DNA of 58,096 nucleotides, filler included, from Dugesia japonica (taxonomy: Eukaryota): the NCBI GenBank assembly GCA_001938525.1. It is 5 parts of 5 records of this genome, joined end to end, with 100 filler letters (N's around TTAATTAATTAA, not from the genome) between each part and the next. Parts side by side here need not be neighbours in the genome. Positions count along the whole stretch, not along the records: positions 48,431 to 58,096 come from MQRL01648355.1; 4 more parts are not named here. One strand, written 5' to 3'. Numbering within the stretch: position 1 is the stretch's first letter; the number at the start of each line of letters is the position of its first letter. Below are positions 34,731-58,096 of this stretch, piece by piece. The notes below the pieces were generated by a model. The model was not told the origin of the DNA and made no database searches. It saw only the letters and a program-made list of their open reading frames with translations. Position numbers and translations under genes: made by a program.

Positions 34731-34851
34731 AAAGACGAGCAAATTAGACAATCCGATGACTCAAGTAAAGGAACGTACGTCTCATATTCTAGATCGGAGC
34801 AATCGATTACCAAATCTGCCCGTGGATATGGACGCATAAACTGTCCTCAGT

Positions 34852-35510
34852 GTGATCATGAATTATCGCTTAGTATTTATTCTAATGTTAAAAAATATGA
34901 ATTTTATGGATTATAATAAATTTGTAGTGTATGGCCAGCTTTGTAAATTTCTTACGGATTTTATTAGTAATGATACTTTTAATTTTAATAACCAATTACA
35001 TAACATTCTTGACAATTTTATCCAAAAACATAATCTCAATATTACGGAAATATTTAATCCCCTCCATTATCGTCTGTGTGCAATTGGTCTTGTACTATTG
35101 CTTCAATCCGGCAAAACAACTTGTATATTACTTGATGGCACCTCTAATGCAGGCAAGTTCCTTTTCATGAAGATATTCAGTGCAGGTTTATATGTAGGAA
35201 GTTTCTCATTAATTCATATGCAATCTGAATTTTGTTTCTATAATCTTATAAATAAACAAATTGGAATTGGAAGAAGTAACATTAGATGCAAAAAATGGTG
35301 ATTATTTTAAACAATTAATTGAAAATTCTCCATTCTTTCATGTCGGTGTTAAATATGGACCTAAAGCACAATTAAAACCAATGCTATTTGGAACTATGTT
35401 TCCAGTGCCAAAGAAGCTATATTAAATCGATGTATCTATTTACCTTGTACTCATGAAGTAACTCTTGATATCAATGTTAATCTTAATAATTATTTAGAAG
35501 AATTTAAAAA
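34852..35510 (+). pseudogene. Parvoviral NS1 / papillomavirus E1-type SF3 helicase (endogenous viral element)
   Basis: GKTTCILLDGTSNAGK Walker A (35137) and SEFCFYNL; after frameshifts, IGI.EEVT Walker B, YFKQL, VGVKY, EAILNRC. Confidence 0.85.
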
Positions 35511-37458: not shown

Positions 37459-37558
37459 NNNNNNNNNNNNNNNNNNNNNNNNNNNNNNNNNNNNNNNNNN
37501 NNTTAATTAATTAANNNNNNNNNNNNNNNNNNNNNNNNNNNNNNNNNNNNNNNNNNNN
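37459..37558. other. Artificial contig spacer
   Basis: 44 N + TTAATTAATTAA + 44 N. Confidence 0.95.
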
Positions 37559-38455
37559 AAAATAGATTATTATTTTTATCAAATCCAATATTATCAGTCT
37601 TTAATCCTAGTATTATGAATCTAGGTCTATATAGTTGGTTTCCTAATTTTACAGAATAATTATTTTCACTCAAAATTGAAATCCTACCTGTTACCCTTTC
37701 CCAGAAGCTTACTTGAATTGATTTATTTGTGGACATTCTTTCTAAATAATTTAATTCTACTTTAAGGTTTAAGGTCCACTCTGAAATGTGAAGTTCAAGG
37801 GTATTAATTTTAATTGTTGCTTTATGATCCTTCTTTTCAAAGAATATTAATTCATCTTGTTAATTTTTTATACAATCCAATTGAATAGTAACCTATTATA
37901 ATTCTGTAAGAAACCAAAAAGAATTTTTAAAGGGTAATAACCTTCATACTGGGTTGAATATAATTTGTTTCTTTTAGTAAAGCTTGAATGATCTATTGTT
38001 CCGGTTTTTACATCTGGTATATACCCATAACTCATAGTACAAGGTAACCTATAAATGTCATACATTATTAAATTTAACATAGTAAAAGCTATCCCCACAA
38101 TTTCCAGATCTTCAACTGTTGATGATCCANNNNNNNNNNNNNNNNNNNNNNNNNNNNNNNNNNNNNNNNNNNNNNNNNNTTTCAATCTCATGGAATTGAA
38201 TAAATTAGGAAACCAATTATTCTCTAGTGTAACATCTGTTTCGGTAGCATCTAAATAATTAATTCCAACTTTGTAATACAACTTTGAATTTCCAATGTCT
38301 AGGGGATTGGTTTATTGTAGTGATTGAAATGTTATTTCCCCAGACTTGTTTAAATTGTTAATTGAACCACTAGTTGGACTAATCTTCAATAAATCATTTT
38401 TAGTTTGTAAGTGTAGAAATTTATTGTTTGCCTCTAACTTCATGTAATAACCATT
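37559..38455 (-). pseudogene. Polinton/adintovirus double-jelly-roll major capsid protein (lineage A), decayed and truncated
   Basis: NLNKSGEITF, LYYKV, LENNWFPNLFNSMRL, GSSTVEDLEIVG..TM, YPLKILFGFLQNYNRL, RPRFIILGLKT match the pattern of Polinton capsid proteins. Confidence 0.7.
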
Positions 38456-38571
38456 TTTCTAAAACATTTATTTAACCTTTACCCTTATATTTATCTACTT
38501 TGTCCATTTGATGATTTTTGTTCAATGGATATCTTTTTATCTTTTAAATATAACAACAAGCGACATCATTT

Positions 38572-39096
38572 CTAAATCTTGCTGGAACGGCTTATTCGTG
38601 TTATTTTTTCATTTAAATTTTTATGGTTTATTTCTGTTTCACTAAATAATTGTAACCATATATCAGTAGATAATTTAATATTATTCTTTGCAATTATGGT
38701 TGATTTAAAGCCGGGCATTACTACAGTCTTTGGTTTTAATTCTAATTTAGATTGTTCCCTTAACTTGTTATGTTCATCTCTTTCTTTCTGTAGTTGATTT
38801 TTAAATTCATCTAATATTTTACATGCTTCTTCATGTTTTTGTGCAAAATTTTTCATAAGTAATCCTCTACAATCCGATTCTGTGCTTTTACATAAAACAA
38901 TAGTAATTAATACTTTTTTACCTTCGCTATCTTTACATTTCTCAATTTTAGTCAAAATCTCTTTCATTATGTTTAACCTCTCATTAACAAACTCTTTTGT
39001 AATTGGAATTTTACTAAACTTTTCAACTTCTTCTATAATCATATTTGTAACATCCTCTACATTTTTTAATGTCTCAAATAAAATATTTAATGTCAC
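38572..39096 (-). CDS. Uncharacterised helical/coiled-coil ORF (174 aa), probably Polinton accessory
   Basis: Uninterrupted K/E-rich ORF directly upstream of and co-oriented with the capsid gene. The start codon is uncertain. Confidence 0.55.
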   Translation of the reverse strand: MTLNILFETLKNVEDVTNMIIEEVEKFSKIPITKEFVNERLNIMKEILTKIEKCKDSEGKKVLITIVLCKSTESDCRGLLMKNFAQKHEEACKILDEFKNQLQKERDEHNKLREQSKLELKPKTVVMPGFKSTIIAKNNIKLSTDIWLQLFSETEINHKNLNEKITRISRSSKI

Positions 39097-39175
39097 AGAA
39101 TAGTTTTCTTTACTGCTTGCAATTTTCTATACTAATAATTTGAGCTAATGAAAATATGCTTACGGTAAGGTAAGA

Positions 39176-39343
39176 AAACAGTAAGGTATGGAAACAGTAT
39201 GGATACAGTAAGGTATGGAAACGGTATAAGAACAGTGTCGAAACAGAATAGAAACAGTATGGAAACAATATGGAAATAGTATGGAAACAGTATGAAAACA
39301 GTATGGAAACAGTATGGAAACAGTATGGTATGGAAACAGTATG
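39176..39343. repeat. Tandem 11-bp array (AAACAGTATGG)n, about 14 units
   Basis: Direct reading; lies between two divergent ORFs. Confidence 0.9.
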
Positions 39344-39367
39344 ATAATTATTTTCAAACTATAATAA

Positions 39368-39757
39368 ATGGCTTGTATTGATTCTAAATTTTATCATATT
39401 TTATCTTCTTATGATTTTATCAATCATTCAGTATCTCGTTTTGTCGACAAATACAATTTAAGTAAAAAATCTGTAAGGAAATATCTAAACATGTATAAGA
39501 TTCCATATAATAAGAAAAATAGAGCCATAAATCAAAATAGAAGTGTTGATGGAACATTTTCATCTTTGATAAAACGATTTGAAGAACCTAAAGAAATTAA
39601 ACCTATTGAAAATAAAGATCCAATACAAAAATTTATTCAAGATACAACTAAAACTAAAAATCAGAAACATAGACATGAAAACAAACCTAATATTGATTAT
39701 TCCAAAATATCTAAAAAAGAATTTTTTAATGAACTTAAAAATAATATTATTATATAA
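39368..39757 (+). CDS. 129-aa basic protein with an N-terminal helix-turn-helix-like segment
   Basis: Intact ATG-to-stop ORF; SVSRFVDKYNLSKKSVRKYL fits an HTH pattern. Confidence 0.55.
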   Translation: MACIDSKFYHILSSYDFINHSVSRFVDKYNLSKKSVRKYLNMYKIPYNKKNRAINQNRSVDGTFSSLIKRFEEPKEIKPIENKDPIQKFIQDTTKTKNQKHRHENKPNIDYSKISKKEFFNELKNNIII

Positions 39758-39963
39758 TAAACCCATCACTATAACTCACCACTTAAACCTTTTTTACCCT
39801 TTCTTTGCTGGACTTTTTTATAAAAACTTTTAAAACCACCTTTTCTTCTTTGTTTCTGGTTTAATATTTTCGTTTAATATTTTAGTTTAATATTTTTTAT
39901 CGATTTTCGTTTCTTTTATAAGTTTTTTTATTCTGGGAAAAATCATCGATCATCGATACTTCA

Positions 39964-40136
39964 AGTAGTAGGGAAATGATGAGTTAGACCCCCTCTCCTA
40001 ATAGCCTCGCTCGGTTTCTACGGTTTTTTAACTAAAAAGTGGTGTTTTTCTCACAAATCACTATCCACCATTTTCCGCTTCCAAAACAGGCCCTTGTGGC
40101 TATGGGGGGGGTCTAACTCGTCATTTCCCTACTACT
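39964..40136. mobile_element. 173-bp element bounded by Polinton-type AGTAGT terminal inverted repeats
   Basis: AGTAGTAGGGAAATGATGAGTTAGACCCCC ... GGGGGTCTAACTCGTCATTTCCCTACTACT (29/30 match). Confidence 0.75.
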
Positions 40137-41150
40137 GATACTTTATTGTATATTAAAGTAAAGGTTTTTGATAAGACTGGTGAAGATTTGACTGACACTC
40201 ATGATGCAATTCCGAGTAATTATATGTTACATANNNNNNNNNNNNNNNNNNNNNNNNNNNNTAATAATGTCAAAATTGAAGGGGGAAATGGATCTTATCT
40301 TCACAAAGAAATAATTTAAACTATAATAAATTATAATGGTGATAGTAAAAATAATTCTTGCAGCAATGGGATATAGATCAGAAGCAGATAGAAAACGTCT
40401 ATTGTAAAATCAAAACAATTGGCTCTATGAGGTTCTTTGCAACTCGATTTCATGGATCAACCGAAATACCTTATTCCTGGTGCCAGTGTTCGTATTCGAT
40501 CGAAACGATCATCTTCAAAGATTTATTTGGAATCTGCAGCTAATGAACCTAAAGATGTATTACTAGATGCAAAGTTAATGGTTAGACGTATACAAGTTGA
40601 ACCATTAGTACTAACTGCTCATCAAATAGGACTAAAAAGCAAAATTCTGTTTATTCAATAAGAACCAAGGAAGTCGTTGCATTTGCAATTAGTAAAGATA
40701 GTTCATTGTTTTATAAAGAACAAATTTTTGGTGATCGACAATTACGTATCTTTATTTTGGTTACATTTCAAAGAGGTGAACAATATAATGTTAGGTAAAG
40801 AATCTTGAGTTCAACATTTCAAAATTTAGATGCTGTTTCCGTTTTCTTGATTAAAAACACTGATTTTTGAGAAATATATACTCAATATTTTACAAACGAT
40901 AATTATGCTACAAGATAAATGCAATCTATGGTAAGAAATATGAGGTATTTGGATAAGAATATGAATTGCGGAATAAAACTTAGTAATTTTAAGAATAATT
41001 ATCCCTTATTTACATTTTTTCTTCAGAATCAATTACTTCAACAAGTAAATTTGAGATTGGATATCATGTTTGCCAAAGCTTTAACAACATCAGTATATGT
41101 TGTCATGAAGAAATTCAAATTAAAGACAATGGAGCAGTATTGGTGTAAAC
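40137..41150 (+). pseudogene. Polinton/Maverick major capsid protein (lineage B), decayed, 5'-truncated
   Basis: DTLLYIKVKV, PSNYMLH, LQLDFMDQPKYLIPG.SVRI, LLDAKLMVRRI.V...VL.AH, F..NYPLFTF, NLRLDI.FAKAL. Confidence 0.85.
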
Positions 41151-42185
41151 AATCCAATAAAGTAAGAGTTATTTTTTAATTTATTTTTTAATTTATTAGT
41201 TCTATTCAGATTAAACGGAGTGCATCAAAGTTAGTTGGATCAGTATTTTTCATTAAACATTGCCTTAATTGAGAATACTCATACAACAAATCTATGTGGA
41301 GAACATTAGATGGCTGTTTACTTGAGAGACAACACTAATTATTATAATGAAGCTCCATCACAGATGAAATTTTCATTTGCTTGTATTTGTAGTATACAAA
41401 ATATATGTTTTATTGACAAAAAATCTTGGTCATTTTCTTAAATAATACTAAGAAAAGTACTCTTTTAATTAAACTTATTAATATTTATATTATTTATTTA
41501 TATTTTGCATGGTTATTATGTAAGCAATACACTTATAAACCATATACAGTTGTAAAACAATTTACTTATAAGTTTTTGTTATATAAATAATGCAAGAAAT
41601 AAACAAAATTATTATTCAAATCTATTTATTAAACAATAAAACAAAAATAATAATAATTACTTCAATTCCTATTAAACAAATAAAATAACACAGCGGATGC
41701 AAATAGAGTTACAACAAATTTAGTTCTCTATTGGCTCTTCAATTCTTCCTTAATTTCTTCGATGAATATTGATTGGGAAATGAATTCAACATAGTCACGT
41801 TTACTCAAAAGACCATTGTCGATCCTGCTTAGAAATTGAATTTCATCAACTGGTAATTTTATCTGTTAATTTTTTAATTTTTCTTTTGACTTGATTCATT
41901 GTGATAATAACTTTGAATCGTAAAAGTGACTTATCTTACAAAACCTGCGGTCTATATACTTGCTGCGAATCACACATACTCTTTATTTGTTAGTTTCTAT
42001 TGGTCGTTACATGTTTTAAATGAAGTGAATGGTTATTACTCATTTTGATTTATATGATTGGGTGTAATTTGTTTTAAATGATATGATTTGTTAGATAAAG
42101 TCATATATTCATGAACGTGACGAAAGCATGCAATGTGCATGACGTGAGCATGCATTTTACATGGTTACCTCATATTACACGGTGA

Positions 42186-42690
42186 TTGTGTAAATAATAT
42201 ACTCATAAATCCTATAATACATGGTTTTGTGTAAATAATACAAGGTAACCATGCAAATAGTACATTCATAACCCTATACACTCATTAACAATATGTAAAT
42301 AATACACTTATTAACCCTATATAATTATAAAAATATTTTCATATAGGTTTTTATATAGACTTATTAGATATATATTGAAAGGTTCCATAAATTTATTATT
42401 TCTATGAAAAGTGTTCTATGCTTTTATCATTTTGTATAGAAACGTTCCCGGCTAATATGTTTTGTTTAGAAAATTACTTTACTAATATGATTTTATTTGG
42501 AAAATTACATCATCAATATGTTTTTTATAAAAGAATTGCGTAGTTAATATGTATTTTATAAGAAAATGTCATCAATGATATGTTTTACTTTGGAAAATTA
42601 CATCGCCAATATGTTTTTAAAGAAAAATTGCATTGTTAATATGTTTTATTATAGAAACTTGTAATAGTTAATATGTTTTTATAGAAAAAG
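42186..42690. repeat. Two degenerate minisatellites (GTAAATAATAYACTCATAA.CCCTATA-type; ~31-bp AATATGTTTT..GAAAATT units)
   Basis: About 3-5 units at 42186-42322 and about 8 units at 42454-42690. Confidence 0.7.
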
Positions 42691-43239
42691 TTATTTGTTT
42701 TAATCATTTTGTAACAAAGGTTTTAATTTAAATATTTTATTTTTGTAAATATCACAAAAACTTTCCTCTTTGAAGTTCTTTAATAGTTATATTTTATCAT
42801 GGTAATTAAATTTAAATTTTAGACTGCCCAATATCTTTGCAATAATATCAAAAATATCAATATCTTGCAATAATTTAAAGACTGTTCAAAATGAATCAAT
42901 ACAACCAAATATCATACATAAATAGTAAAGACTCAAAAAAAGTCAATACTGACCAATCTCTTGCAAAAAATAAAAACTGACCATATAATACAAAATATAA
43001 GAACTACCAAAATGTTTTTTGTTAATGAGTTCAATAGAGATGCAACTCAGATGCAACACAGGTGCAACATACACTGAAAATCACGTTCCTGGGAATTTTT
43101 ATTGACTTTTTAGTAAACCTTTAATAAATGCAATATAGGATGTAAATTGTACTGCGGCGCCACTATTTCTCTACTAGATGTGTTAAATAGTTGGTCTTTT
43201 ACCATAAGCTCTAATAATATTTCTAGTTTAATATCCTTA

Positions 43240-45120
43240 CTCTCCAAGAAAGACTATCTGTGTCTCCTTCCACTATATTGATCTTACATTTTTCTTCTCT
43301 ACCATATTTTTCCTCGATATACTGAAGCTAGTAGATTCTCAATTTCAACAAATCTAATATTTTCTGTCCTTTATCTCAACACATATCTCAACACATATTC
43401 TTTATTCAACTGAAATGCTATTACGTCGTTGTTGATTTTGATTGTTTTCCTAAACTATGGATTTCATACGTAGGTTAATAGATTATTAGCTGAATTTCAT
43501 GTTTTAAGATTCATTCTTTTCTTTAGATTTTCGATGGATTTAACATTTAGTGCATAAATCAGCAGTTTATAATAGTTTTTGTTTAATTCTGTTTTTATCA
43601 ATACACTGTTTTTATCTATGTAATCTTTGAAAATAGGTGCCTGAGTGAAGTTTACTGCACTATGAACATGTGTTACTTGCACACCTAAATGCAAAAAAAT
43701 TTAATAAAAATTTATATGAATCAATAAATTAAATTGATATTTTTGATTGATGAGCAATCAGACAAAGTTTTTCTGTGGTTTTTGGAATACATGAAATATT
43801 TCATTTTGTGAATTTGACTAAGTTTATACTTGAGAATATGATGGAGATTGTGAAACACTACTGGTAACAATTTGATTATTTTTCTACATAGATTGCATTT
43901 GTTACAATCAGCACCAAAGTATTTCCCTGAGAAATGATTATGATCACGAACTGTTTTGCCTATCATCTTTTCACATAAATGGCATATTTTAACTGCAGCA
44001 AAGACAATTTCTTCAGCTCTTGATATATTCATTTTCTTTCGTCCATTTTGAATATGGTATTTATTACTTGTAATTTCTTATAATTTTTTCATAAACTTTT
44101 AAATACAGTCTTCTCAATAAACTGACTGAATTTCGCAACGTTATTACATATGTTTACTAACAATAGTCTAGCTGAAATTGGAAGATTCTTTTGAAAATAT
44201 TTGTCATATTTCAACGACACTGATTCAAAATCATCGTAAATGGCAAACAGTGAAGTTATTATTTTCCAATGATTTTTAAACTCCAATTTTGGATCATTTG
44301 GTGTGGTGTACATTGTGGTATTTGTTTGAATCTTGCTGCACATAGGTTCGTGTTTTTTGTAAGTTATACTGTTTTTGAACCCATTGAGACAATTGGTGCA
44401 CCATGTTGATTGAATTCCTACACTATAGTTTTTTTGTCTCGGTTTATTAGATAATTTTAATTAATTACTAACTTGTAATGAAAGTTTTCACCGTTTTTCA
44501 ATAGTAAAAGATTAATTATTTGCCCATCTTCTACTTTTGATCTATGATTAATGTAAAAATTTGGATGCTTCATATCAACATCATAATCTTCGATTAATTG
44601 AAAGTTCTTTGAGAAGATATTGGTGATATTTCCTGGATTTTGTTGCCCAAAAAATTGGAATATTTGCCAATTTCAAAGGCATATCCTTTTAATCAAATGC
44701 TAGTTCAGACGTGTATTTTTTATATTTTGCTGGTTAATGCTTATTTCTTTCTTCAACTATATCTTGTTTCAGAATAGCAAGAATGCTGTATATAAAACAT
44801 AGATTGTCATTGTTTTTGACGTTAACAACGGTTCTTTTTTTTAAAGTTTTTTGTGTTGGAATGAAACTACTTACTGAAAGTCTACGGACATTGCTGAATT
44901 TAGTTATTTTGAAATTAGTTTTCAAAATATCTTGAATATCTAGTTTGAACCAATTTCATTTCTAATCGTTATCTTCTCATTTAACTATTTAATCCTTTCT
45001 TCAAAAAATGTTTCAACCAAAGAAACTACTTGATTTGATATTCTACAAGTTTTAATATCTTTATCTCTTAGAAAGTCAACAGTATTATTATATTAGTCGT
45101 TGTTTGATCTAATACTGGTT
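43240..45120 (-). pseudogene. Polinton protein-primed DNA polymerase B remnant 1 (N-terminal region fused to a palm fragment; large internal deletion)
   Basis: SSFIP..L....VVNVKNNDNLCF.YSILA; FKNHWK....FAIYDDFES; CHLC..VRDHNHFSGKYFGA.CNKCNL; PVVFHNL; FTQAPIFKDYIDKN; YKLL..ALNVKSIENLKKR; GDTDS. Confidence 0.9.
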
Positions 45121-45676
45121 TCCGTCTTGCTATCTTAGTTGGGGGGATGGAGTTTATAATGTGTTAATAAATGTTATGCAATAAATCTTTTTTAATGAAA
45201 ATTTGTTTTTATTTTTTCATTTTAAACATAATTTTTAATTAAACATTATCTTTTTAATTACCTGCTTCAATTGTTGGTAATAATTTAAGTTCTAGTACAA
45301 AATACTTTTTATCAATATTTGTCAACATTTCTTCTATAATAAGATCCAAATTCATTGTTAATAAAACATCCTATTTCATTTTGTTTATATTTAACATGAA
45401 AATGCATACACAATGCATGTTTTGGTTATGTTTATAAAAAGAACTTAATAAATAAATAATAAGAAATTATAATAGCATTTTTTCTTAAAAAAATATTTAC
45501 ATTTCACAATTTTAAGTTCTAAGGAGAACGTGTTATACTTTCACAATGTTTTTGTTTTCGTTTTCTTTTTTCATTATAATCTAAATATAAATAATTAAAA
45601 TGACAGTTAAAAACAAATAAATAAATACCTTTGTTTGAGGTTTTGTTCTTGACGAGGCTGGACCAAATGTACGATT

Positions 45677-46680
45677 TTAAGGGGAAAAACTATTTAATAG
45701 TATAGTGCCATATGGGACACTTTTATATTTGTCAACCCTAATGAGCTTATCGTCTGTATTTGTCAGTGCTAATTTATTAGACTTAATGCTATACAAATGA
45801 TGATTTTTTATGCTTATCCTAAATTGTTTCACTGAGACTGATTTGTTTACATTATAACAGTCAAGGTAAGATTGATGAGAACTTTCTGTGTTTTCAATGT
45901 TGTCTTTTGCTCTCATGCTTCTCTAATCGCTGAGCAGGCTATAACATTCCAGCCTCAAAAATACCCATTCTTGATACTTTAGCATTTATTCTCATCTTTA
46001 AATTTCCCCATTACTGAATTTATGCTGTTACAATAAAGGGTACGATCTTTATCATAATTTAAAGTATCAAGTAACTGATCTGTTATAGTTTTTAATTTAA
46101 TAATATTTATTTCTAGAAAAAAACTATATGTATCACCAACTACAATATTAATTTTACAATTAAATTTCTTCTTCTTAAACTCAATGTACTGAAGTTTGTA
46201 CATTTTAATTTTGAGAGGTCAAGTACAGTTTGCCCTATGTTGCTCGGATGATCAAAACAAACTTTATTCTTATTGAGAATAACAGCTATTAAATCATCAT
46301 CAATTTTTGTGGTTTTCTTAAATCTGGATTTTGATGTGTATGTAATCAACTTTTTCACTGAATTACATAAGCGCAGATTAATCCCATTCTTAAGATTCTC
46401 AACTGACTGTCCATGTAAATTGTAGTTTAAAAGTATATGATAGTTTTCATCAAATTCTGTATCGCAATTTGAATTGTATTTGTATTAATGTAATTTTCAA
46501 AAATTGAGGCCTGTCTAAATTTAACAACTCTATAAACCTCTGTTACTCAAACCCCTAAACTTAAGTACATTGGCAATAATCTCCAGTGCACTTGGCGAAG
46601 TGCATTAGCATTAATTTTCTCATTTTCTAACCGGAGGAGCTCCTATTATTTGCTGCAACCAGTAAATCGTTCAAATAATC
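45677..46680 (-). pseudogene. Polinton pPolB remnant 2 (C-terminal palm/thumb)
   Basis: SVENLR, FDHPSNIGQTVLDLSK, GDTYSF, LDTLNY, MGKFKDE, HHLYSIKSNKLAL..TDDK, SVPYG. Confidence 0.9.
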
Positions 46681-46685
46681 GTGTA

Positions 46686-47445
46686 CAATATCGTCCATAT
46701 GTTTTGAGCCACCTTATAAAAATGCACATAATAGTAGATTAATTAAATTAATTGTTTTATGATTTGAAATATTTTAATTTAGATATATGGTGATGTTAGC
46801 TTTATATTTCATTAAAAATTTATTATCTCAAATAATTATTGTATAATTAATAAAATACATTTGTTATAATAAGCCGTTTTTTAAAAGTTTTGATATTATT
46901 TAAATACATAAACTATTTTAAAGTATTCATTAATTTTTTAGGTAAAAACTATATTTACAATATTTTACTCATTGTTACCTAATATATTCTTATAATTTTA
47001 GAAATAATTTAGTTAAACATGGCTCGGATATCGATAGATATTAGGAAATTAGTCATTTAAAAATTGAAAGAGGGTTTGTCTCAGTGGAAAGTTGCAATTC
47101 TACGTAATAATTCAAGGTATGCTGTACAACATATTATACTCAAGACAAAACAACATAAAACATTGGGAAATCTATTTAAAAGTGGCCGAAAACCGGAAAA
47201 TACACAAAGATCTGAAAGATCACTTATATCAAAGAAATATCCCCAGAAAACAGCACGTCAGCTTTTGATTGATTAGAAAACAAGCCTAACTTCTTCAGTT
47301 AGTATTGTCAAGCGTATTATGAGAAATTGCGGCTTGTTTGGATTTATTGCAGTAACGAAACATTTATTATATGAGCGACAAATTAAGAATCGCTTAAAGT
47401 GTTGCAAAGACTATGGTAACCTGATTCATTCTTTATGGAATGACG
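46686..47445 (+). mobile_element. Tc1-type transposon 5' part
   Basis: TA-CAATATCGTCCATATGTTTTGAGCACC TIR-like start interrupting pPolB. MARISIDIRKLVI..LKEGLSQWKVA, SGR, PQKTARQL, R.K.CK form a bipartite HTH region from 47020. Confidence 0.8.
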
Positions 47446-47678
47446 TCAGATTAGGATAGAACTATATATACAATAAAATCGCAGTATAGTAAGTGTATTG
47501 ATGATGATTCCACTGTATCAGCACAAAACAGTTATAGTTTGGGTGATGACATCACTGTGTCAGTGCATTCCAGTTAGGGTTTGGAATCGAAACCTTGGAT
47601 GAAATTCTGATAAAACGAAGCACTTTACTACAGTAATCCTTTAAACAATGTATATGCAGTATTTTATTTGGTATATAA

Positions 47679-47689
47679 TGGTATCAGAG
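47679..47689 (+). other. Possible tRNA-iMet primer-binding site (TGGTATCAGAG) following a ~235-bp LTR-like segment
   Basis: Canonical PBS 11-mer; no LTR pair or gag detected. Confidence 0.3.
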
Positions 47690-48330
47690 TTTCTTTCTTA
47701 TTAATTAAATATTATTATTTAATTTTAGTTATAACTATTATTATTAAAAAGGTTCAAATGCAATACACCCACTTCAGCGAGAACGAAGCATTTTTCGGAA
47801 CTAAGCTTTTGGATTACATATAGACAACTTTCAATTCTGAATCAAATGCTACCAAATTCAAAATCCTACGTCTATTTTCAGCCAAGCAAAATTTTTAATA
47901 AATCAATTTTGAAATTGAAAGCATTTTCTACTGAAATGTATAAGACTCTACATTTTTCAAACTGCTTTGTCATCGGGTGGACTTGAAGAGGTAGTTTTAT
48001 GCGCTACTATCTACCTACTGTTGTTAATAGTTTTAAAAGTTGGGACTGAATGTATGAAATATGAACTAATATCAATATTTTTGGACTAATTTTATATAAA
48101 TACAACCAAACATCGATAAAACATAGTATAATTTTATATTCACATCTAGTATGTTTATTAAGTCATGTAGAAAAATATAAAGATCTCATAAGGAACATAT
48201 CAATTTTGTTTTTTGGTGGGAAAGAAAGTTAGCTACTATGTTATCAGGTCATTTAATATATTAAACATGTTTATCAAATCAGGATAAATATTTAATCAAT
48301 CTTCATTGACGATTCTATGGTTCTTTCATT

Positions 48331-48430
48331 NNNNNNNNNNNNNNNNNNNNNNNNNNNNNNNNNNNNNNNNNNNNTTAATTAATTAANNNNNNNNNNNNNN
48401 NNNNNNNNNNNNNNNNNNNNNNNNNNNNNN
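48331..48430. other. Artificial contig spacer
   Basis: 44 N + TTAATTAATTAA + 44 N. Confidence 0.95.
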
Positions 48431-48571
48431 GTAACTCATATTTATCAATTTGATTTATGATCATTTTGTTTATACATTTCTATAATTGAAATTTGTATGA
48501 GTCATCTTCTTTGTTCACGTTTTGCACTGTTCTTGCTTCATGTATGTATTGATCATGTCTTCTGCATTGAT

Positions 48572-49004
48572 TTAGTTTTTCCTAATTAAATTATTCAAAT
48601 TAGATATTACAAAATCGACTTGAGGTTGATAATCCAATGTTTTGATTCCAGCAAAGACTAATTTTTTTCTTATGAAAATACATTTACACAGACTTGATTG
48701 AATTTTAATAATTTAGGTTCATACATACATTTAGTTCTTTTTGCTAAATCATATAAATTGATTGAATATCCCATATTGATAACGACTGTATTCGACTGTA
48801 GTTGAATATCTTTGATATCATATTGTAAATATTTTCTTTTCAATGTTTTTTACACCCCATGATTCTACATCTTCTAGATTTGAAAACTACTAAAGTATAT
48901 TTTCCCGTTTTGTCAACAACTTGTGATGGCCTGCCAACTGAAAAATTCATTTTTCTTGTAACCTCTTGTGAAACTTTGCCTCTGTAATTAATATTTTCAA
49001 TCAT
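48572..49004 (-). pseudogene. TATA-binding-protein (TBP)-like gene, intronless, two frameshifts and one stop
   Basis: Manual translation: MIENINYRG...YTLVVFKSRRCRIMGCKK / IQLQSNTVVINMGYSINLYDLAKRTKCMYEPKL..FNQVCVNVFS* / KLVFAGIKT. This matches both TBP repeats (ALIFSSGKMVCTGAK; IQNMV..D..F.IRLE.L..YEPELF..LLIFVSGKVVLTGAK). Confidence 0.75.
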
Positions 49005-49047
49005 AATTATATCAATAAATTTTTAAAAAGTGAATATATACATATAC

Positions 49048-49706
49048 ATGAACAATAATTTAATTGATACATTAAAACAAACAATAATTGAATAAAGAAA
49101 TGATGCTGTTTATCAAATTGCCGGTCGAAGTGAAAGTGGAAAAACTCTATTTGTGTGTAAATTATTGAAATCAAAACTATTCAAATCAAAATTCAACAAA
49201 ATATATTGGCATAGAGGAGCTGATGAAGAACATGGATTAACTCAATTCAAATTCTGTGATATAAAAATGAAAATTATAAACGGTTTTTTTGAGAATTAGA
49301 GCAAGAGATTAACTAAAGGTGGTGTGATTGTTGTTGATGATTTGTATCAGGAAGCAAACAAAAAAATGACTTTAACAATTTATTCACCAAGATATCAAGA
49401 CATTGTAATGTGACTGTAATATTTATTACTCAGAATCTATTCCATCAAGGAGGTGGCCATAAAACTCGTAATTTAAATATACAATATTTGGTTGTATTTG
49501 AAAATCCAAGAGATCAAACAGTTGTTGATTTTCTTGCAAGACAAGCATATCTAAGCAATAGGCAATTTCTTTTGGATTCATTCAAAAATGCAACAGTAAA
49601 TCCACATGAATATCTTTTTATGGACTTTACATAACAATGTTCAGATGAACTTAGAGTGAGAACTGATATTTTCAATCCAAATGGTGTTATCTTATATAAA
49701 CAATAA
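49048..49706 (+). pseudogene. Polinton A32/FtsK-like packaging ATPase
   Basis: IAGRSESGKT Walker A, VIVVDDL Walker B, LFTKISRH.NVTVIFITQNLF, LNIQYLVVFENPRD, P.EYLFMD, LRVRTDIF. Confidence 0.93.
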
Positions 49707-50049
49707 ATGTAATTTCTTATTTCATTTACAAATGTCGAAATTTACTAAACTAATAGTTGATCAACTCAAGAATAAAATGATTAAATAAGATAAAAATCCA
49801 AAAGATATTTAATAAAGAAGACAACCAACAAGTCGGCAAAGATTGTTATTAAAAAGAAGAAACAATNNNNNNNNNNNNNNNNNNNNNNNNNNNNNNNNNN
49901 NNNNNNNNNNNNNNNNNNNNNNNNNNNNNNNNNNNNNNNNNNNNNNNNNNNNNNNNNNNNNNNNNNNNNNNNNNNNNNNNNNNNNNNNNNNNNNNNNNNN
50001 NNNNNNNNNNNNNNNNNNNNNNNNNNNNNNNNNNNNNNNNNNNNNNNTC

Positions 50050-50310
50050 TAGAGCCAAAATGTTGCAACCATTTTCATCATTTGTTGTTGACGATTTACT
50101 AGAGTTTATTGTAAACATAGTTCGTAGTAATGCAGTTATAAGAAAAGTTAGAAAACAAGCATAGGAAAAACATAAAAGATAATTGCTTTTACTTGAACAT
50201 ACCAAGAATGAAAAATTAAATTTAGAAAATATTATACAAACAACATCGCGGCTTTATCGCTACATTACTACCTATTGTATTGGCTTCATTAGGTCTAACA
50301 AATTTTTCAT
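50050..50310 (+). pseudogene. Small conserved Polinton ORF (basic, C-terminal LLPI motif)
   Basis: VNIV.SN, KHKR.L..L and LLPIVLASL, lying between ATPase and integrase; decayed. Confidence 0.45.
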
Positions 50311-50380
50311 AAACAATATATACCAAATTTGATATAAACAATGGGAAATTAAGAATCATTACCTAGAATTAATCTAAGAT

Positions 50381-51410
50381 TTGGATAAAATTGTTGTAAT
50401 GGACAAAACAGAGATGATATGGACAGAACCAAAAATTCTAGCAGGATTCAAACGAGTAGAAAAACTATGGAAAGCAACACAAAATTCGAAAGACAAGATG
50501 CAAAAGTNNNNNNNNNNNNNNNNNNNNNNNNNNNNNNNNNNNNNNNNNNNNNNNNNNCCAATGTTGAAAATATTTCCAACAAGAGCATATAAAACATTTA
50601 ATATTGACAATTTATGGCAAATGGATTTGATGGAAATGATACCTTAATTAATAAGGATTAAAAGTACATTTTAACATGTATCGACGTATTTAGCAAATTT
50701 GCGAGAGCTGTTCTAGTCAAGTCGAAATCTGCAAATGCAATGGAAGCTGCAATCAAGTTAATGATTGACGATGGACATCCTGATAATTTACAAACTGACT
50801 TGGGAAAGGAATTTTACAACTCTAAAGTCAAGAATATCATTTCANNNNNNNNNNNNNNNNNNNNNNNNNNNNNNNNNNNNNNNNNNNNNNNNNNNNNNNN
50901 NNNNNNNNNNNNNNNNNNNNNNNNNNNNNNNAAAAAGTACTTTGTACATACTGGAAATAAAACATGAATACATGTATTTCCGAAAATAATTCATAGTTAT
51001 AATCATACAAATCATAATGGATTGAATGAAGCAAAAACTGTAGATGTATCATCTGAAAATTCAATGAAATTATGGTTATTGAAACAAAAACCGAAAGTTA
51101 TTAAAGAAAACCATAATATAAAGTTGATTATTATGTTAGAATCTCAAAGATATCAGCTTCACCATTTATCAAGAATTGTGATAGTAATTGAAGTGACGAA
51201 GTGTTTTAAATATCGAAAATCAATACCAAGCAGAATCCAATCATGTATGTGATTAAAAAATATGAAGATAATATCATTCAAGGAAAATTCTATGAGCAAG
51301 AATTACAAGTAATTCTCCAACCAACAGTATTTAGAATAGAAAGGAATTTAAAATCAAAGGGAACAAGTATTGATAAAATATTATATGTAAAATGGCATGT
51401 ATACTAAAAA
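50381..51410 (+). pseudogene. Polinton retroviral-type (c-)integrase with a C-terminal chromodomain-like end
   Basis: DNLWQMDL, YILTCIDVFSKFA, LQTDLGKEFYN, SYNHT, DYVRI, IQGKFYEQELQ, FRIE, LYVKW. Confidence 0.93.
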
Positions 51411-51460
51411 CTTACATGAATATCAGTATCTCAAATAGTAAATTCAACAAAGAAGAAAAT

Positions 51461-52492
51461 ATGAACAAAACGAATAATTTCTATACACTTTTACCGAGTA
51501 ATAGTTATCCACTTATTCATCTAGATAACAATGCTAGTAATTTCTATGTCGAACGTCAAAATTCAATTTATTTGAACGGTCAATGGGAAGAGGCTTTGAT
51601 GGATTTCACTTTAATATACTCAGCTTTTCCATTTTATAGTAAATCCAATATTAAATATATATAACAGGAAAAGACGAATGGAAGGAAATACTTGTTACAA
51701 TTGATAATAAGGAAAACAAATTGTGTACCAGTGATGACGATGTTATTCAAATATATGAAAAAGAAAACTTGCATATCAAATTACTACATCATGAAAATGA
51801 ATTGAAATTTGAAAACCTTGAATATGCAAAACGATTTGGATTTGAAAATTTAAATAACGACATAAAAATTGCAGACAAGTTTATTTTCTTTCAAACGTTT
51901 AAAAACGATGATTCAATAGAACCTATAAAAATTAAGTTATTTTATTCAATAGAAACTGTCAATGTCATTCAGTTTAAAGATGATTTGTATATAATAAAAA
52001 TCAAGCAGTTAAATATTAAGCGGAAAATTGTTTTGATATATTTAAAACTCTTTATCTGAAAAACGATGAACCATTTAGATTTTCGCTGTTAGATAATTTT
52101 AAAAGTGTAACATTTGATGGAATTCTAACAAAAAAAACTTGGATTAGTCAAACAAAAGTATTTCCGGGATGAAACAATTGATATTCAAGAAACTGTTGAA
52201 TTCACGGCACCTAAAAAACCGCAATTGTTGAACAATCATCAACAAGTAGCATTATTGAACCTGTTATTGTTGGTGATGTTAGTGTTCCTCTGTTGAAATC
52301 CATATGTGGTTGGAAACGTATGAAGATGATCACGTGGTCCAAATAATTGTTGAAAATTCAATGTATTTACTAATATCCACATCGTTTATAAACAATATCG
52401 AAATCAATATACGGGATGATAACGAAAATTTAATCAATTTTGCTAAAGACTCAAAAACTCATTTAACACTACATTTTCGAAAAAATGTCTAA
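51461..52492 (+). pseudogene. Polinton minor capsid (penton) protein
   Basis: FYTLLPSNS....DNNASNF.V.....I.LNGQWE.AL at the N-terminus; IIEPVIVGDVSVPLL and IEINIRD...LINF......LTLHFRK at the C-terminus. Confidence 0.88.
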
Positions 52493-52678
52493 TCCGGATA
52501 TCATTTCATTGTATAGTACTAGTCAAGCCGGGCGAGAATTACCATACTTTGTAGGAAAATAGTATGGCTCTGGATTGTTGCAAACAACTGATCGATTTGC
52601 TTTACCTATTCTTAGATGTATTGGAGATATTGGTATGAAAACAGTTCAGGATGTGATATCAAATAAATCAAAAATTTT
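52485..52678 (+). pseudogene. Polinton core-protein-like ORF following penton, truncated
   Basis: YSTSQAG.ELPYF.G..YGSGL....RFALPIL...G...V.DV pattern; overlaps the penton stop and is cut at the telomeric tract. Confidence 0.65.
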
Positions 52679-52698
52679 GGGTTAGGGTTAGGGTTAGG
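52679..52698 (+). repeat. Interstitial telomeric tract GGG(TTAGGG)2TTAGG
   Basis: Direct reading; lies exactly at the Polinton/gypsy junction. Confidence 0.85.
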
Positions 52699-52699
52699 T

Positions 52700-53381
52700 G
52701 CGTTTGCCAAATCTGGAATACCTAGTATTCTATTTGCGGGAAATTCTACTGCATTTATAAAATCCTTCAAATTCATACCAACTAGAATGCAGCTATCTAA
52801 AATCTTCTTTATTTTCTCTTTAAAATCTTCGCCATCCTAGTTTCCTGTAATTTGAGCTTCTTGCAACCCATGTGCATGCGCTTGGTAATGTTTGATGCAA
52901 CTGCGTGGAGTAATAATGGAATTGATTATCAGTTCACCGTCAAAATTAAGCACGGTGGCTGAAACTATAGCTGATTCAAATTTTCTTTGAGTGTAACATG
53001 GTAAAAAGCCCCGAAACCTGTTACACAATTTTCCTGTTGCGGGGTTAGAGACAATCGCACAAATGATTTCTGTATTTTAATGTCATTAAAATTGGCATAA
53101 TAAGTCCATGTGAGCTCATTCATAGCTGACCTAATGGCTGGTTTTTCAAAATATAAGACCTCCACAGCGATAATTGCTGTACCTTTGATGCATTAGAAAC
53201 CTATTTTCCTCTCCCTGCTATCTTCATTGATGATCTCCAGGGTGGTATGTTTTTCCAAATATACGGGGGTTGCTATTCCCTATAATGCAACCGTGATTGA
53301 TTTATTGATTGCATGAACTCACAGGTTAGATGTTCTTGGTTCATTTTTCATATCTCTAAATACATTCATAATATTTGCCAT
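52700..53381 (-). pseudogene. DEDDh 3'-5' exonuclease (REXO4/ISG20/REX1-like), decayed and 3'-truncated
   Basis: AIIAVEVL (ExoI-like, first D appears mutated); IVSATVLNFDGELIINSIITP..IKHY..HAHGL..QI; FKEKIKKILDSCILVGMNLKD (ExoII-like). Confidence 0.7.
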
Positions 53382-53429
53382 TTCTCGGCAACATATTGTG
53401 GAGACAAACATGGTTCTTTTTAGAGCATT

Positions 53430-54340
53430 AGGAAATTTGAATTTATTTGGGATTGCCGTTGTCTCATAAGACGTAACTTTTTCAACTTATTCTGTGCTCA
53501 TAGCCACACCGCAATCACACCCATAAAGCCAATTCCTGCTACCAACAATGCTAATACCATCTGAATACGCTTTTGCATTTTGCTGTTAGCCTTGTTATTT
53601 AAGGAGTCGGTGTAGAACAATTACACTGCGCTAAGGCCATTTGAGATGCTACCTTTTCCACGCTAACATTTGTCTGACATGTTTTAATTCTATTCCAGAA
53701 GTTTTTATTTAATTTTCTGGAAATCGGTTTCTTACTAACCGTACCAAACATAACCTTGCTTGATTGTATTTCTTCAGAGAATACCAGATATGTGGCTGTT
53801 GATGCTTCTTTCTGTCGATAATATCTAACTTTTATATCGGAGTTAAGTCCAAAACACCATCTCCAAACATTAACGTTTTTGTTCAAACGAATTATAGAAT
53901 TTAATTTTCCGTGGTAAAGCTCGATTTGTGTTTCCTCCTGCTCTGTTTGTACTTTTGTGAAAAATAGGCATGATCCTTTGTACGATATTACTACTTTGTT
54001 TATTGGCAATGTCGTAAGATACCATCCGGTGGTTCTTACAGTCTCCCCATATACAGATTTGAATTGCTGATACCAACACTGCATAGAATAGGTATAGTTA
54101 GCCTTTAAATTTCTGATATTGACCTCTCTGTTTCTATATCCTATCTTGTAATCTGTTTCTGTTCCATCGGAAATAAACGCTATGTGGTAGTTGAATGTTG
54201 ATTCGACTGTTGTTCTTATAGAGAATTTATGGTACCATCTTCGTAATATTATTTTCTCCATTGGTACTGCTTTGGGTTGAATTTCAATCTGTGCACTGAC
54301 CATATTAAGACTACTTATTATTGCAATAATCATTAATATT
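53430..54340 (-). pseudogene. Env-position type I membrane protein: signal peptide, FN3-like beta-rich ectodomain, TM helix, basic tail
   Basis: ILMIIAIISSLNMVSA/Q signal; NIRNLKANYTYSMQC resembles the FN3 L.P.T.Y motif. After a frameshift near 53610: MVLALLVAGIGFMGVIAVWL then KLKKLRLMRQR. Confidence 0.65.
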
Positions 54341-57130
54341 TGCGAATACGTTTGTGATCTTAGTGGATATCTATTGTTAGATCCTTGAGTGTTTGTTGAA
54401 GACCTTTTTGCCTTGTCCTTGACTTTTATCTCTTTATTTTTAACTTGCTCATCTTTTGTATAATATTTGTTGCATCTATTTGCATGTACTAGTATAAGTT
54501 CTGCTTTTCTGTTAGAACAAAATTGTTAGACTAAATTAGTTTCTGTTGTTTTTAATACCTCATAAGGTTCCTTGTAGTTTCGTACCAACTTCGGTGACAA
54601 ACCTTATGTATTATTATGCCCTTCGAACATTACTAAATCTTGCACTCTTAACTTGTGCGGTTTAGTCTTTTTATCATATGCCTCTTTCATTCCTTCTTGT
54701 GAATATTTAATACTTAAATTAGCTTTTGGCTAAGCTATTTGCATCTTATCTTTTAGTTCAAGCAGATAATTGCTCTCATCAAGGTACTGTGATAATAGTG
54801 TTAAAAATACAAGATCTACCGGCATGTTGCTATTTCTCAAATACATTAAAGGAAACGGTGAATAACCTGTACTTGAATGTACTGCGTTACGATACGCGAG
54901 CAAGCATGTGGGTATGTGAATGTCTCAATCCGTTTGCTCAGAATTGAGATATGATGATAGCATTTGAGCTAATGTTCCATTAAACCTTTCGACTAATCCA
55001 TCCGTCTGAGAATGATATGGAGATGTATTTAATTTTAATATTCCAAAATACTCATTTATTCCTTTTAATAAATTACTCATGAAATCTTTTCCTCTGTCGG
55101 TTAGCAACTTTCTTGGTACTCCATATCGAAAGACTATCTGTTCCACAAAGATTCTAGCCATTGTATCTGCTTTATGGTCCGGCATAGGAAAAGCTTTGGG
55201 CCATTTTGTGAGATAATCCCAGGCTACTAATATAAACTTATTTCCATCATTTGTAGGTTTAAATGGTCCCAACACATCCATCGCTAGAAATTTCATTGGT
55301 GATATTGGAATTGGCATTGGTTTCAATGGTACCCTTGTTTTGGCTCCTGTATTTCGTCTGGTAGTACAAACATTACATGTTTGACACCATTGCTTTACTT
55401 CCTGACGAATTTCCGGCCAAAAATATTTCTGCCTTGGTCTAGAAATTGTTTTTTTGGCTGAGAAATGTCCTCCCAATTGCCCATCATGATATTGTAACAT
55501 CAAAGCATCTCTAAGAGTTTTTGGTACCATTACAACATTATCAGTTGCTTCCTGATATTTCACTAATCCATCTTCTAATAAGAATTTTCCTTGGTTCTTC
55601 GACCAAAACTTTTCAAATTCGACTGGTACTATTTCAGTTTCTAGAACCTGTTTTATTTGATTAATTTCCTCATCCTCGAGTTGAGCCTTGATCACATCGA
55701 CTTGGTTGTTTGCCATTTTAAGAACTGCAAATATTGTTTCTTCTAATCTTCCTTCTTTAATATCTTCAGGCTCATCATCCTGATCCATTCTTGATAATGC
55801 ATCTGCATTTGAGTTCTCTTTTCCTTTTCTGTAAATGATATCTATATCATATGGCTTTAATTTCAATGCCCATCTAATTAGTCTAGATGAATCGTTCTTA
55901 TGCTTCATCAACCATTGTAATGGCTTGTGATCGGTGTAGATTATTATCTTTCTACGCCAAAGATAATGTCTAAATTTATCAATCGCGAATATTACTGCTA
56001 AAGTCTCTAACTCTATCACATCATAATTTTTCTCGTGAGGCTTCAGCCCTCTACTTGCATAAGGTATAGCGCATTCATTACCGTTTTCATCGAGTTGGCC
56101 TAACACAGCCTCAGCTTCTTTATTACTGGCATCCGTCATGACCATGAATTCTTTTTCGAAATTCGGATATTTAAGTATTGGTGCAGATATTAATAGATTC
56201 TTGAGCGTCTCGAACGCGTTTTCCTGTTTAGTTTCCCATACAAATTTAACTCCCAGTTTTTCCACCTGTGTTAAGGGGAATGCTAGGGCTGGAAAATCTC
56301 TAATAAATTTTCTATAATATCCTGCTAATCCTAAGAACTCTTTTATTTGTTTTGGATTCTTTGGTTGAGGAAATTTTTGTACTTTTCTTATATTTGCTGG
56401 ATCAGGTCTTATTCCTTTCCGAGATATTACATGACCCACATAAATGACTTCCTCCTCAGCTAATTTACATTTTGTAGGCTTTAATTTAATGTTTGCTTTT
56501 TATAATCTAGTGAACACCTCTTCCAAATTTCCGAGATGTTCATTGAACGTTTCTGAGAAGACTAATATGTCGTCAATGTATACCATTGCAAATGGCACAT
56601 CTTCTAGGATTTTATTCATGGTTCTTTGAAATGTCTCCGGAGCTCCTGTGAGTCCAAATTNGCATAACATTATACTCGTAATGACCCATATTTATTGAAA
56701 ATGCAGTCATTCTTTTAGTTTCCTCAGTGCATACGATTTGACAAAGTCCTTTTTGTTCATCTCCTACGAAGTAATATAATGCTTTTTTTAATTTATCGAA
56801 TATCCATTTCAATAATGGTAAAGGATGACTGTCCTTGACTGTCACTTCGTTTAATTTACGATAATCATTGCATAATCGTACTGTTCCGTCTTTTTTAGCC
56901 ACAACTATTAATGCGGACTGGAATGGTGATTTACTGTGACTGATAATTTTATATTTTAACATCAGTTTAACTTGCTTTTCTACGTTTGCTTCCAATTTCT
57001 CAGGAAATGGATACGGTCTCAACTTGATTGGTTTATCCGTTGTGAGCACAATTTCATGCTCCAAGATATTTGTTATTCCAAGATCANATTCGTGTTTAGC
57101 GAAAATATGATCAAATTTTCTTAGCAACAT
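54341..57130 (-). pseudogene. pol: Gypsy pol: RT, RNase H, integrase
   Basis: LCNDYRKLN, YIDDILV, FLGLAGYYRKFI, TDAS, TDHKPL, NADALSR, H..GH..C..C zinc finger, AMDVLGP, LTDRG, GLVERFN, PYEV (GPY-like), RYPLR. Confidence 0.97.
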
Positions 57131-57163
57131 ATTTATGAGAATATTTTCTTTTCTAGTTAAAAT

Positions 57164-57933
57164 TTAACTATCGCAACAAGGTGCATCATAGTATTCGATA
57201 TCTGGATCACGTTGCTCTGTAACAGAGAGTTTTGAAGATTTCCCAATTATTTCATCATCTAGTACATAAATAACTTCCATATTTGTATCTGGAAAAAATG
57301 TAATCGGTCTAATGTCTAAATTTTTCAATTTTATTGAAAATCTACCTTCTCTAACCTGGCTGACGCTATAGGTTCTGGGTATAAAATATCTTTCCATTAA
57401 CAGACGATTTGACTCAAACAGTACTTCTCCTTCCTGCTTGAGTGTAGTATTGATAGTACATACAGTTTCTACCATAGGAGGTATCGTGATCTGTCTATCG
57501 ATATAAGCCAAGTGTTTATTGTATTCTTTTTTACGCTTTCTGGTTAACTTTACCAGCTGTCCTGTGGCGCAATCAAAAACCACATCTTTGAGCTTTTTCA
57601 ATACATCCATATCCAATATACTTTCTACTGGACATCTCCTCATGACTTTTATTTCATGTTTTATGTCTTGATCACATAATTTTATATTACAAACTAGATA
57701 TCCAATGATATCTAATTTTCCTCCGTTTTTGCTGCAGTAATGTCTGATTGTTCTTTAATAACATTTGCAGTTTCTGTTTTATTCAGTAGATTGGCTTCTA
57801 CTATTGTTCTGTCTGATCCGAAATCTATCATAGCGTAGACTACATGTCGATTAATTCTTATTTTTATTGTTGGCTTGTGAGCGTATTCTGCATTTACCAT
57901 AAAAGTTGACATAAATGTTGAAATCCCAAACAT
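57164..57933 (-). pseudogene. Gypsy aspartic protease and PR-RT spacer
   Basis: IRINRHVVYAMIDFGSDRTIV (DTG-like) and SILDMDVL (ILG.D-like), followed by a beta-rich spacer ITIPP...IKLKN...PIT. Confidence 0.85.
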
Positions 57934-58096
57934 GTTTTTCTTTGTGTATCAAATTTTAGTTCTGTTTGATTATTCATACCATTTCTTTCTTGTAATTGAT
58001 AGTTTTGATTAAACTAATTTTTTCTAAACTGCTCTGAATTCATATTTGATAAGTTTCTTATTCTAGTTTTCTCTTTTTCCCAGTTTTGAAATCCTT

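Follow-up and report, generated by a model that had tools for sequence, protein, structure and literature searches.

A broken Ty3/Gypsy element of Dugesia japonica continues, in its pol frame and past the end of the integrase, into a signal-like segment that is followed by two beta repeats and, beyond a frameshift found in this copy, by a membrane helix. The results showed that this integrase-to-membrane-protein layout is a family feature, conserved across a Pol clade. The encoded protein is probably not the envelope fusogen but a second surface protein of the adhesion type. We give a probability of about one half to the reading that this membrane protein with fibronectin type III (FN3) repeats, at the end of the polyprotein, is released by signal peptidase and acts in adhesion or attachment, where it would aid a separate gB-type fusogen between touching cells.

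The pol frame and its continuation behind the integrase

The window that was analyzed is a stretch of 58,096 nucleotides (filler included) from assembly GCA_001938525.1, and the element lies in the part taken from MQRL01648355.1. The window is AT-rich (GC about 20–35%) and full of decayed mobile elements.

The order of protease, reverse transcriptase, RNase H and then integrase identifies the copy in the window as a broken Ty3/Gypsy (Metaviridae) element (Table 1). The protease remnant is 35–37% identical to the protease region of the relatives L001, L002 and L011, and the decayed region from protease to reverse transcriptase is 31–39% identical to relatives. No dUTPase was matched in 56400–58096, a decayed stretch. 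The pol ORF (54925–56499) and the ORF at 53599–54525, both on the minus strand, lie in the same frame, as an earlier note on this DNA had stated, and four in-frame stops (54925–54927, 54730–54732, 54604–54606 and 54526–54528) stand between them. The same note had described the integrase tail as passing directly into a hydrophobic signal sequence, and this was also borne out: in minus-strand translation the tail reads ...NRYPLRSQTYSQ-ILMIIAIISSLNMVSA-QIEIQ, and the hydrophobic core of the signal lies at 54307–54339 (mean Kyte-Doolittle hydropathy 2.9 over 11 residues). One single tblastn segment of the relative P0003 (residues 49–901) started at 56658, passed over the integrase tail and the signal and ended inside repeat 1 at 54070, which at the level of sequence is more than chance.

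Table 1. Features of the element and its broken end, in window positions
Feature	Position	Strand	Basis
Aspartyl protease remnant	57712..57948	-	Pfam RVP E 0.12 only
Protease-to-reverse transcriptase region, stops and frameshifts throughout	56500..57754	-	RVT_1 E 1e-15 (one frame)
pol ORF: end of the reverse transcriptase, RNase H, zinc finger and core of the integrase	54925..56499	-	PF17917 E 3e-36, PF17921 E 3e-19, rve E 3e-7
Integrase C-terminal part, pol frame, four stops here	54373..54927	-	Five intact relatives align without frame change
RYPLRS motif closing the integrase	54355..54372	-	(R/K)YxLR found again in many relatives
Internal signal-like segment	54292..54354	-	Sequence, hydropathy; similar segment in 18/18 listed relative rows
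Repeat 1, modelled FN3 fold	54001..54279	-	AlphaFold2 with 21-row alignment, pLDDT 87, seven strands; Foldseek and VIA-align FN3 matches
Repeat 2, probably FN3-like	53746..54009	-	hhalign to relatives' repeat profile
Stalk, with frameshift near 53602 in this copy	53558..53745	-	Sequence, comparison with other copies
Transmembrane helix	53501..53557	-	Hydropathy 2.6 over 19 residues (Kyte-Doolittle); frame differs after break near 53602
Stop (this copy) and basic inside flank	53469..53500	-	Loose ends of organism-B contigs, X1 and X2
Remnant of separate downstream ORF	52697..53459	-	tblastn E 2e-16 (L002), 1e-14 (L001), 3e-10 and 4e-8 (L011)
Three TTAGGG-type repeats at junction with Polinton-like element	52679..52698	+	Sequence; X1 depth jump

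For other copies we used contigs from four public DNA-type runs of two organisms, by which all 30 bins of 52300–55600 were covered. Within the stops 54730–54732 and 54604–54606 the other copies differed from the window in 4/4 runs, and within 54526–54528 in all three runs that covered that place. The earlier note had proposed a check on whether the internal stops occur in other copies; three of the four proved not to be shared, the comparison being confined to these three as the stop 54925–54927 was not among the 40 differences listed per comparison. The column of that fourth stop holds Trp in 5/5 intact relatives aligned. Likewise, the stop directly after the helix (53498–53500), which precedes the basic stretch, was altered within the codon in both runs covering the place, and the break at 53602 was absent from an organism-B contig. 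The copy in the window is dead and makes nothing.

Organism-B contigs also displayed loose ends of 191–206 letters on both sides, and X1 and X2 had loose ends at 53467; together these span 53467–53469, and extra sequence that is missing here is present in other copies at about 53468. Because these loose ends represent an internal deletion at about 53468, the cytoplasmic tail of this copy is unreadable. The depth in X1 from pol to 52633 was 1,633–10,347 (within about six-fold) versus about 20 for single-locus contigs; depth is not equal to copy number, and it points to a multicopy unit that takes in the post-integrase region. Left of 52633 the depth in X1 jumps about 100-fold. The 5' part of the element, where gag would be expected, falls beyond the window. 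The 3' LTR is gone because the element breaks off at 52697 against telomere-type repeats and a Polinton-like element, and no LTR pair was found in the 15 relative contigs examined, all of which are partial.

The remnant next to this break belongs to a downstream ORF with a clade-specific N-terminal domain and a DEDD (REX4/ISG20-like) exonuclease domain, the front and the end of which are missing. Its homology to the DEDD exonucleases (PF00929) is apparent from the downstream ORFs of L001, L002, L005 and L007, which match that family; the remnant itself matched ISG20L2 at E 0.15. The set of four acidic DEDD residues is incomplete here, the first D-x-E being absent and the last motif lying past the break; D-x-E is kept in the ORFs of L001, L002, L005 and L007 and lost in several paralogues. 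We rejected the possibility that the exonuclease serves as the membrane protein's cytoplasmic domain, as the two are separate ORFs in relatives and were joined here by deletion. DEDD exonucleases and short transmembrane proteins have been reported downstream of pol in LTR elements of bdelloid rotifers (PMC5408684). As described there, the rotifer ORF3s are separate ORFs, DEDDy/RNase D-like and without FN3, whereas the present relatives have a membrane protein fused to Pol and a nuclease of REX4/ISG20-like type (PF00929).

Three RNA runs, 6–26% of each of which was searched, gave 1, 19 and 18 reads, mostly less than 90% alike and stemming from diverged copies. No splice joint was found in these reads, and none of the runs listed as containing the region is on record as RNA. 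Strong expression found no support in the three runs, in which the reads were too few to rank regions.

Intact relatives and the Pol clade

We refer to a signal-like segment, an ectodomain and a C-terminal membrane helix behind the integrase as a cassette. Relatives were collected by a Pol search for longer proteins, in which 120 of 1,873 matches were listed and one group stood at 46–54% identity. Using an alignment of the post-integrase parts as the query added 8 proteins, 27 metagenome loci and 9 genome loci, and a scan of viral contigs with this alignment found no relative. Integrase, signal-like segment and membrane helix were joined in one ORF without a stop in 16 distinct intact relatives (P0004, P0006, P0007, P0008, P0009, P0011, P0013, P0018, L001, L002, L003, L004, L006, L007, L008 and L011; P0011 and L005 are identical). 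The in-frame fusion to Pol, noticed earlier in the window alone, is thus a family trait shared by intact relatives. P0003/L029 has one stop within the cassette, and L028, P0125 and P0126 end inside it.

A quick maximum-likelihood tree was built from 49 of 108 eligible rows, namely 17 cassette rows and the 32 next most similar ones, with L003, L004, L028 and L009 absent. The window Pol was sister to L006 and L011 (SH-aLRT 97) and fell inside a 19-row clade (support 99). Of the 18 other rows in this clade, 16 contain the cassette; the remaining members P0123 and P0026 have none in the protein on record. The same quick tree groups this Pol with env-bearing members of the gB-type errantiviruses of GAG-ENV-POL order. 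The ectodomains of the relatives contain one to three repeats of about 80–90 residues each, neither of the two repeat profiles matched those of L006, L011, P0009 and P0013, and L001 and P0008 have a second cassette ahead of the protease.

Putative release, modelled fold and tail of the membrane protein

Behind the hydrophobic core of the signal there is a small-residue pattern ending in VSA, with a predicted cut after 54292 that is followed by about 230 residues, and small residues precede the putative cut in most relatives. Judged from these sequences, release of the post-integrase protein by signal peptidase is plausible. The transmembrane helix after one frameshift, with a basic inside flank, was recovered as the earlier note had it, except that in this copy a stop lies between the helix and the basic stretch.

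An FN3-like, beta-rich ectodomain of about 230 residues had also been proposed, and the FN3 fold stood up to modelling for repeat 1, but the ectodomain comprises two repeats, not one. The model of repeat 1, which rests on an alignment at 4–18% identity to the query, is a seven-strand beta sandwich of the kind that characterizes FN3. When it was submitted to Foldseek, as the earlier note had suggested for the repaired protein, nearly all matches listed were FN3 domains (best E 2e-4, TM 0.5–0.7). VIA matched it to fibronectin with a Z of 10.5 and an rmsd of 2.4 over 86 residues, and class II cytokine receptors (IFNAR1, IFNGR and IL-22R) tied with fibronectin at Z 9.5–10.5. FN3 matches led all PDB structure searches with repeat 1. 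Taken by itself, the window protein had ESM features whose ten best family matches were all from the fn3 clan (top score 0.88), which we regard as a lead only. Folded as a single sequence with AlphaFold, the ectodomain reached a pLDDT of only 33. The model supports a fibronectin type III fold for repeat 1. Repeat 2 is probably FN3-like, as its hhalign score against the relatives' repeat profile (17.1 over 53 columns) was above 150/150 shuffles, at a probability of only 11%. In that comparison repeat 1 was not above shuffles; it aligns nearly gap-free to the first repeat of L029.

Pfam fn3 had no match at its cut-off in the window protein, and the relatives gave weak FN3-type matches (P0003, fn3, E 0.21; L007, Fn3_Dep-1, E 0.012). 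The repeat HMM of the relatives gave 0.1 and 0.4 bits on the window repeats, where shuffles reach 7.5, because the ectodomain repeats diverge so fast. A related repeat profile matched PDB sequences at E 0.17–1.2 only, with the FN3 of IL-2 receptor beta at 0.3. A sequence search with the window ectodomain found 0 matches among 126 candidates and, among 1.84 billion representatives, one, a repetitive protein that was judged unrelated. On the repeats dN/dS was 0.31 (L003/L004) and 0.27 (L005/L007, a pair near saturation) versus 0.00 and 0.04 on the integrase. The repeats are under purifying selection, yet evolve much faster than the integrase.

A class I PDZ-binding end (S/T-x-V/I/L, as defined in PMC4810129) was found in 13 of the 18 cassette ORFs, one of which is cut by a contig end, versus 4/113 other Gypsy polyproteins and 1/13 downstream ORFs. 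The Fisher value of 6e-11, with close kin counted, overstates this enrichment because kin are not independent. The PDZ-type end is kept by tails that are otherwise unlike one another, and the nearest relatives differ, L006 having such an end and L011 lacking it. HTLV-1 Env and rabies G likewise have class I PDZ ends on viral membrane proteins, with no homology to the proteins studied here, and the motif of HTLV-1 Env is reported to help cell-to-cell fusion at the virological synapse (PMC4810129).

Relation to the envelope fusogen and possible functions

The pre-protease region was scanned in full in three clade members, L001, L002 and L011; L006 and P0003 are cut before it. All three carry a gB-type (Monjiviricetes) fusion glycoprotein (PF24664, E 1e-84 to 1e-94) ahead of the protease. 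This glycoprotein shares an ORF of 3,200–3,700 residues with Pol, and in L002 and L011 Gag zinc knuckles precede it. Since these members have a fusogen as well, in this clade the FN3 protein comes on top of env and does not replace it, and the proposal of an atypical env-position gene is not supported in that form. By the spacing in L011, the end of Env with its helix would fall about 400 bases beyond the window edge; because the window stops short by that distance, we infer the gB-type env of this element from its relatives and do not see it.

The ectodomain (about 245 residues, two short repeats and a stalk, with six Cys in the first 230 residues) has neither the several hundred residues nor the conserved disulfide frame of a fusogen and gave no Pfam match, in line with the earlier remark that known fusogen hallmarks are missing. 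For comparison, an F-type fusogen has about 600 amino acids (PMC5408684). The structure matches listed for the model, which concern repeat 1 only, are FN3-type, and there is no fusogen among the 50 BFVD rows listed, which excludes nothing. To our knowledge, FN3 repeats offer no fusion machinery.

The gene order of L001, L002 and L011 is that of the GAG-ENV-POL errantiviruses with HSV/gB-type Env, which has been reported for Platyhelminthes, Nematoda and Bryozoa and includes Smed_errantivirus_1-6 (PMC13524379). By eye, the Env of the three relatives starts with a YQExD-type motif, as do six Schmidtea sequences; this likeness is between the relatives' Env and the Env fragments of that paper's supplement, the window sequence not being part of it. 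Fibronectin, immunoglobulin, exonuclease and PDZ are not named in its main text, and the searched portions of the paper describe no membrane protein after the integrase. Burro / GYPSM1, a giant planarian Gypsy element, encodes a single very large polyprotein, in which Env lies between Gag and protease in the same frame, and shares ankyrin and ubiquitin-like domains with the present relatives (PMC6431247). It is described as having a size of over 30 kb and BIR, BCL2, MATH and dUTPase domains, none of which was detected here, and its description mentions neither FN3 nor a post-integrase membrane protein; we do not assign the present element to Burro.

The layout and its conservation, the FN3 model, and the fusogen and PDZ-type ends of the relatives are observations on which a mechanism may be built. 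One long Gag-Env-Pol chain would cross the ER membrane twice, for Env and then for the FN3 protein, and signal peptidase would free a type I membrane protein in a 1:1 ratio with Pol. Binding of the tail to PDZ scaffolds would hold the protein at junctions or sites of contact, the FN3 repeats, which change fast, would bind the surface of the neighbouring cell, and adhesion of this kind would help the gB-type fusogen to pass the element between touching cells. Herpesvirus entry has two parts, gB acting together with gD and gH/gL. The combination of a fusogen with a separate surface protein is an analogy in working only, not one of homology; unlike the herpesvirus proteins, the putative partner in the relatives is FN3-based and would be cut from the Pol end, and its partnership with Env is conjectural. 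More tentatively, a clade of giant invertebrate errantiviruses may draw a two-component entry system from a single polyprotein: a gB-type fusogen ahead of the protease, and a swappable FN3/Ig adhesin from the integrase end, whose PDZ tail would place it at cell junctions to set up synapse-like contacts for passage from soma to stem or germ cells.

It is also conceivable, if rather unlikely, that the type I FN3 protein is an accessory that modulates the host cell and is not directly involved in transfer. For instance, it might stand in for a cytokine or adhesion receptor as decoy or mimic, block superinfection, or hijack PDZ and tyrosine signalling. The tie of class II cytokine receptors with fibronectin is consistent with this, as are the tails rich in Tyr and Pro, the cargo of the clade (ankyrin, RING, ubiquitin-like and exonuclease domains) and the swapping of the ectodomain for an Ig-like one in P0040 (Ig_3 E 0.024) or a Cys-rich one in P0013. 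However, an FN3 fold in common names no ligand, and as the protein is part of one chain with Gag, Env and Pol, its amount is coupled to the making of particles, while most of the other cargo sits in ORFs of its own.

A membrane anchor and assembly organiser, with the cassette tethering the Pol end, PDZ or PPxY-like motifs choosing the budding site and the repeats as a folded spacer, is improbable. The position of the signal segment directly behind the integrase, the PPSY in the tails of L008 and P0013, and the lower dN/dS of helix plus tail (0.12, versus 0.31 on the repeats, in L003/L004) would suit such a function, but a cleavable signal would part the ectodomain and tail from Pol, and one to three repeats under purifying selection, together with the second cassette of two relatives, seem beyond the needs of an anchor. 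It is very improbable that the FN3 protein is the sole envelope-position gene and has replaced the fusogen in this family: although it occupies the place of env in canonical errantiviruses, the window shows no env, and L006 and P0003 are cut before that region, the gB-type fusogen was found in 3/3 fully scanned members, including L011 as one of the two nearest, and FN3 repeats are not known to offer fusion machinery. That a host exon or unrelated sequence lies by chance in frame behind a dead pol is scarcely credible, since the four stops, the frameshift and the lack of significant ectodomain sequence matches are outweighed by the same layout in the 16 intact relatives, by a depth in X1 that stays within about six-fold from pol to 52633 and far above single-locus contigs, and by stops that other copies do not have.

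The element class is known, and the post-integrase FN3-TM-PDZ protein is apparently undescribed: no such protein was found in the searched portions of the literature, including PMC13524379, PMC6431247, PMC5408684, PMC8532177, PMC11410931 and PMC13238120, with Grohme 2018, Sacco 2022, Repbase and figures outside the comparison. How envelope-bearing retrotransposons choose and reach their target cells is an open question, in which one Env has been assumed. A second surface protein that is conserved and combines receptor-like FN3 repeats with a PDZ-binding tail is a candidate for determining tropism, or for manipulating the host as a mimic of a receptor. As far as the sequence suggests, the ER would process the Pol polyprotein at the end that carries the integrase. 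The case also cautions that a transmembrane gene in the env position is not necessarily an env. Such elements are de-repressed in planarians, tissue by tissue, after PIWI knock-down, according to the data in PMC8532177, which would open the natural protein to a direct search.

Tail-to-tail junction with a Polinton/Maverick-like element

A decayed Polinton/Maverick-like element lies tail to tail with the Gypsy element and contains, besides the domains listed in the table, pieces that we take to be ATPase-like, polB-like, and minor-capsid-like. In sequencing runs, the abundance of its right part was much greater than that of the Gypsy element. At the junction, an ORF from each element, the exonuclease ORF on the Gypsy side and a Polinton-like one on the other, ends abruptly exactly where three TTAGGG-type repeats are found; nowhere else in the window do two exact TTAGGG units stand in tandem. 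The possibility exists that the junction is a break that was healed by telomeric repeats.

Features located in the window
Feature	Position	Strand	E
MULE transposase, mariner-type transposase, second RT fragment	1547-2194, 5308-6210, 11991-12296
Ser/Pro-rich open frame	20991-21566	-
Helicase-like ORF pair	34251-35301	+
Polinton/Maverick-like element	37500-52679
Its double-jelly-roll domain	37503-37856		4e-5
Its endonuclease VII	43724-44077		7e-4
Its integrase core	about 50660-50840		3e-4
Junction repeats	52679-52698

Other decayed elements and open frames

Further decayed mobile elements are present in the window, as are two neighbouring decayed helicase-like ORFs, for which a Pfam search returned no match at E 0.05. 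By their motifs, one of these presumably resembles the Rep of circular ssDNA viruses and the other a parvo/papilloma SF3 helicase, and we take the pair to be reminiscent of the planarian virus-like element PEVE. The Ser/Pro-rich frame (191 codons), which had no match in Pfam, is possibly a host exon.

Domains and reading frames added in relatives

Among relatives of the window Pol, aspartyl-protease-like extra domains follow the integrase in the same ORF in P0007, P0011/L005, L007, P0018, P0026, and P0124, and are accompanied there by ankyrin repeats in P0007, P0011, and L007. Downstream of Pol, the exonuclease ORF family, with a common unnamed N-terminal domain, is clade-wide (L001-L007 and L011); L005 and L007 carry tandem copies, one with and one without a D-x-E motif, and L003 and L004 have an additional RING-finger ORF. 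Two clade members (L028 and L029) were found in contigs deposited as bacterial MAGs, which most likely represent eukaryotic contamination.

The C-terminal 300 residues of P0040, a protein of a neighbouring lineage, have the same post-integrase layout as the cassette clade, with an Ig-like domain in place of FN3 (Ig_3, E 0.024) and without the class I PDZ-binding C-terminus. A second signal-repeat-TM cassette is located upstream of the protease in P0008 (residues 50-230) and in L001 (4700-5400), where it sits between env and protease. With this additional cassette, the L001 and P0008 polyproteins would give three membrane proteins.
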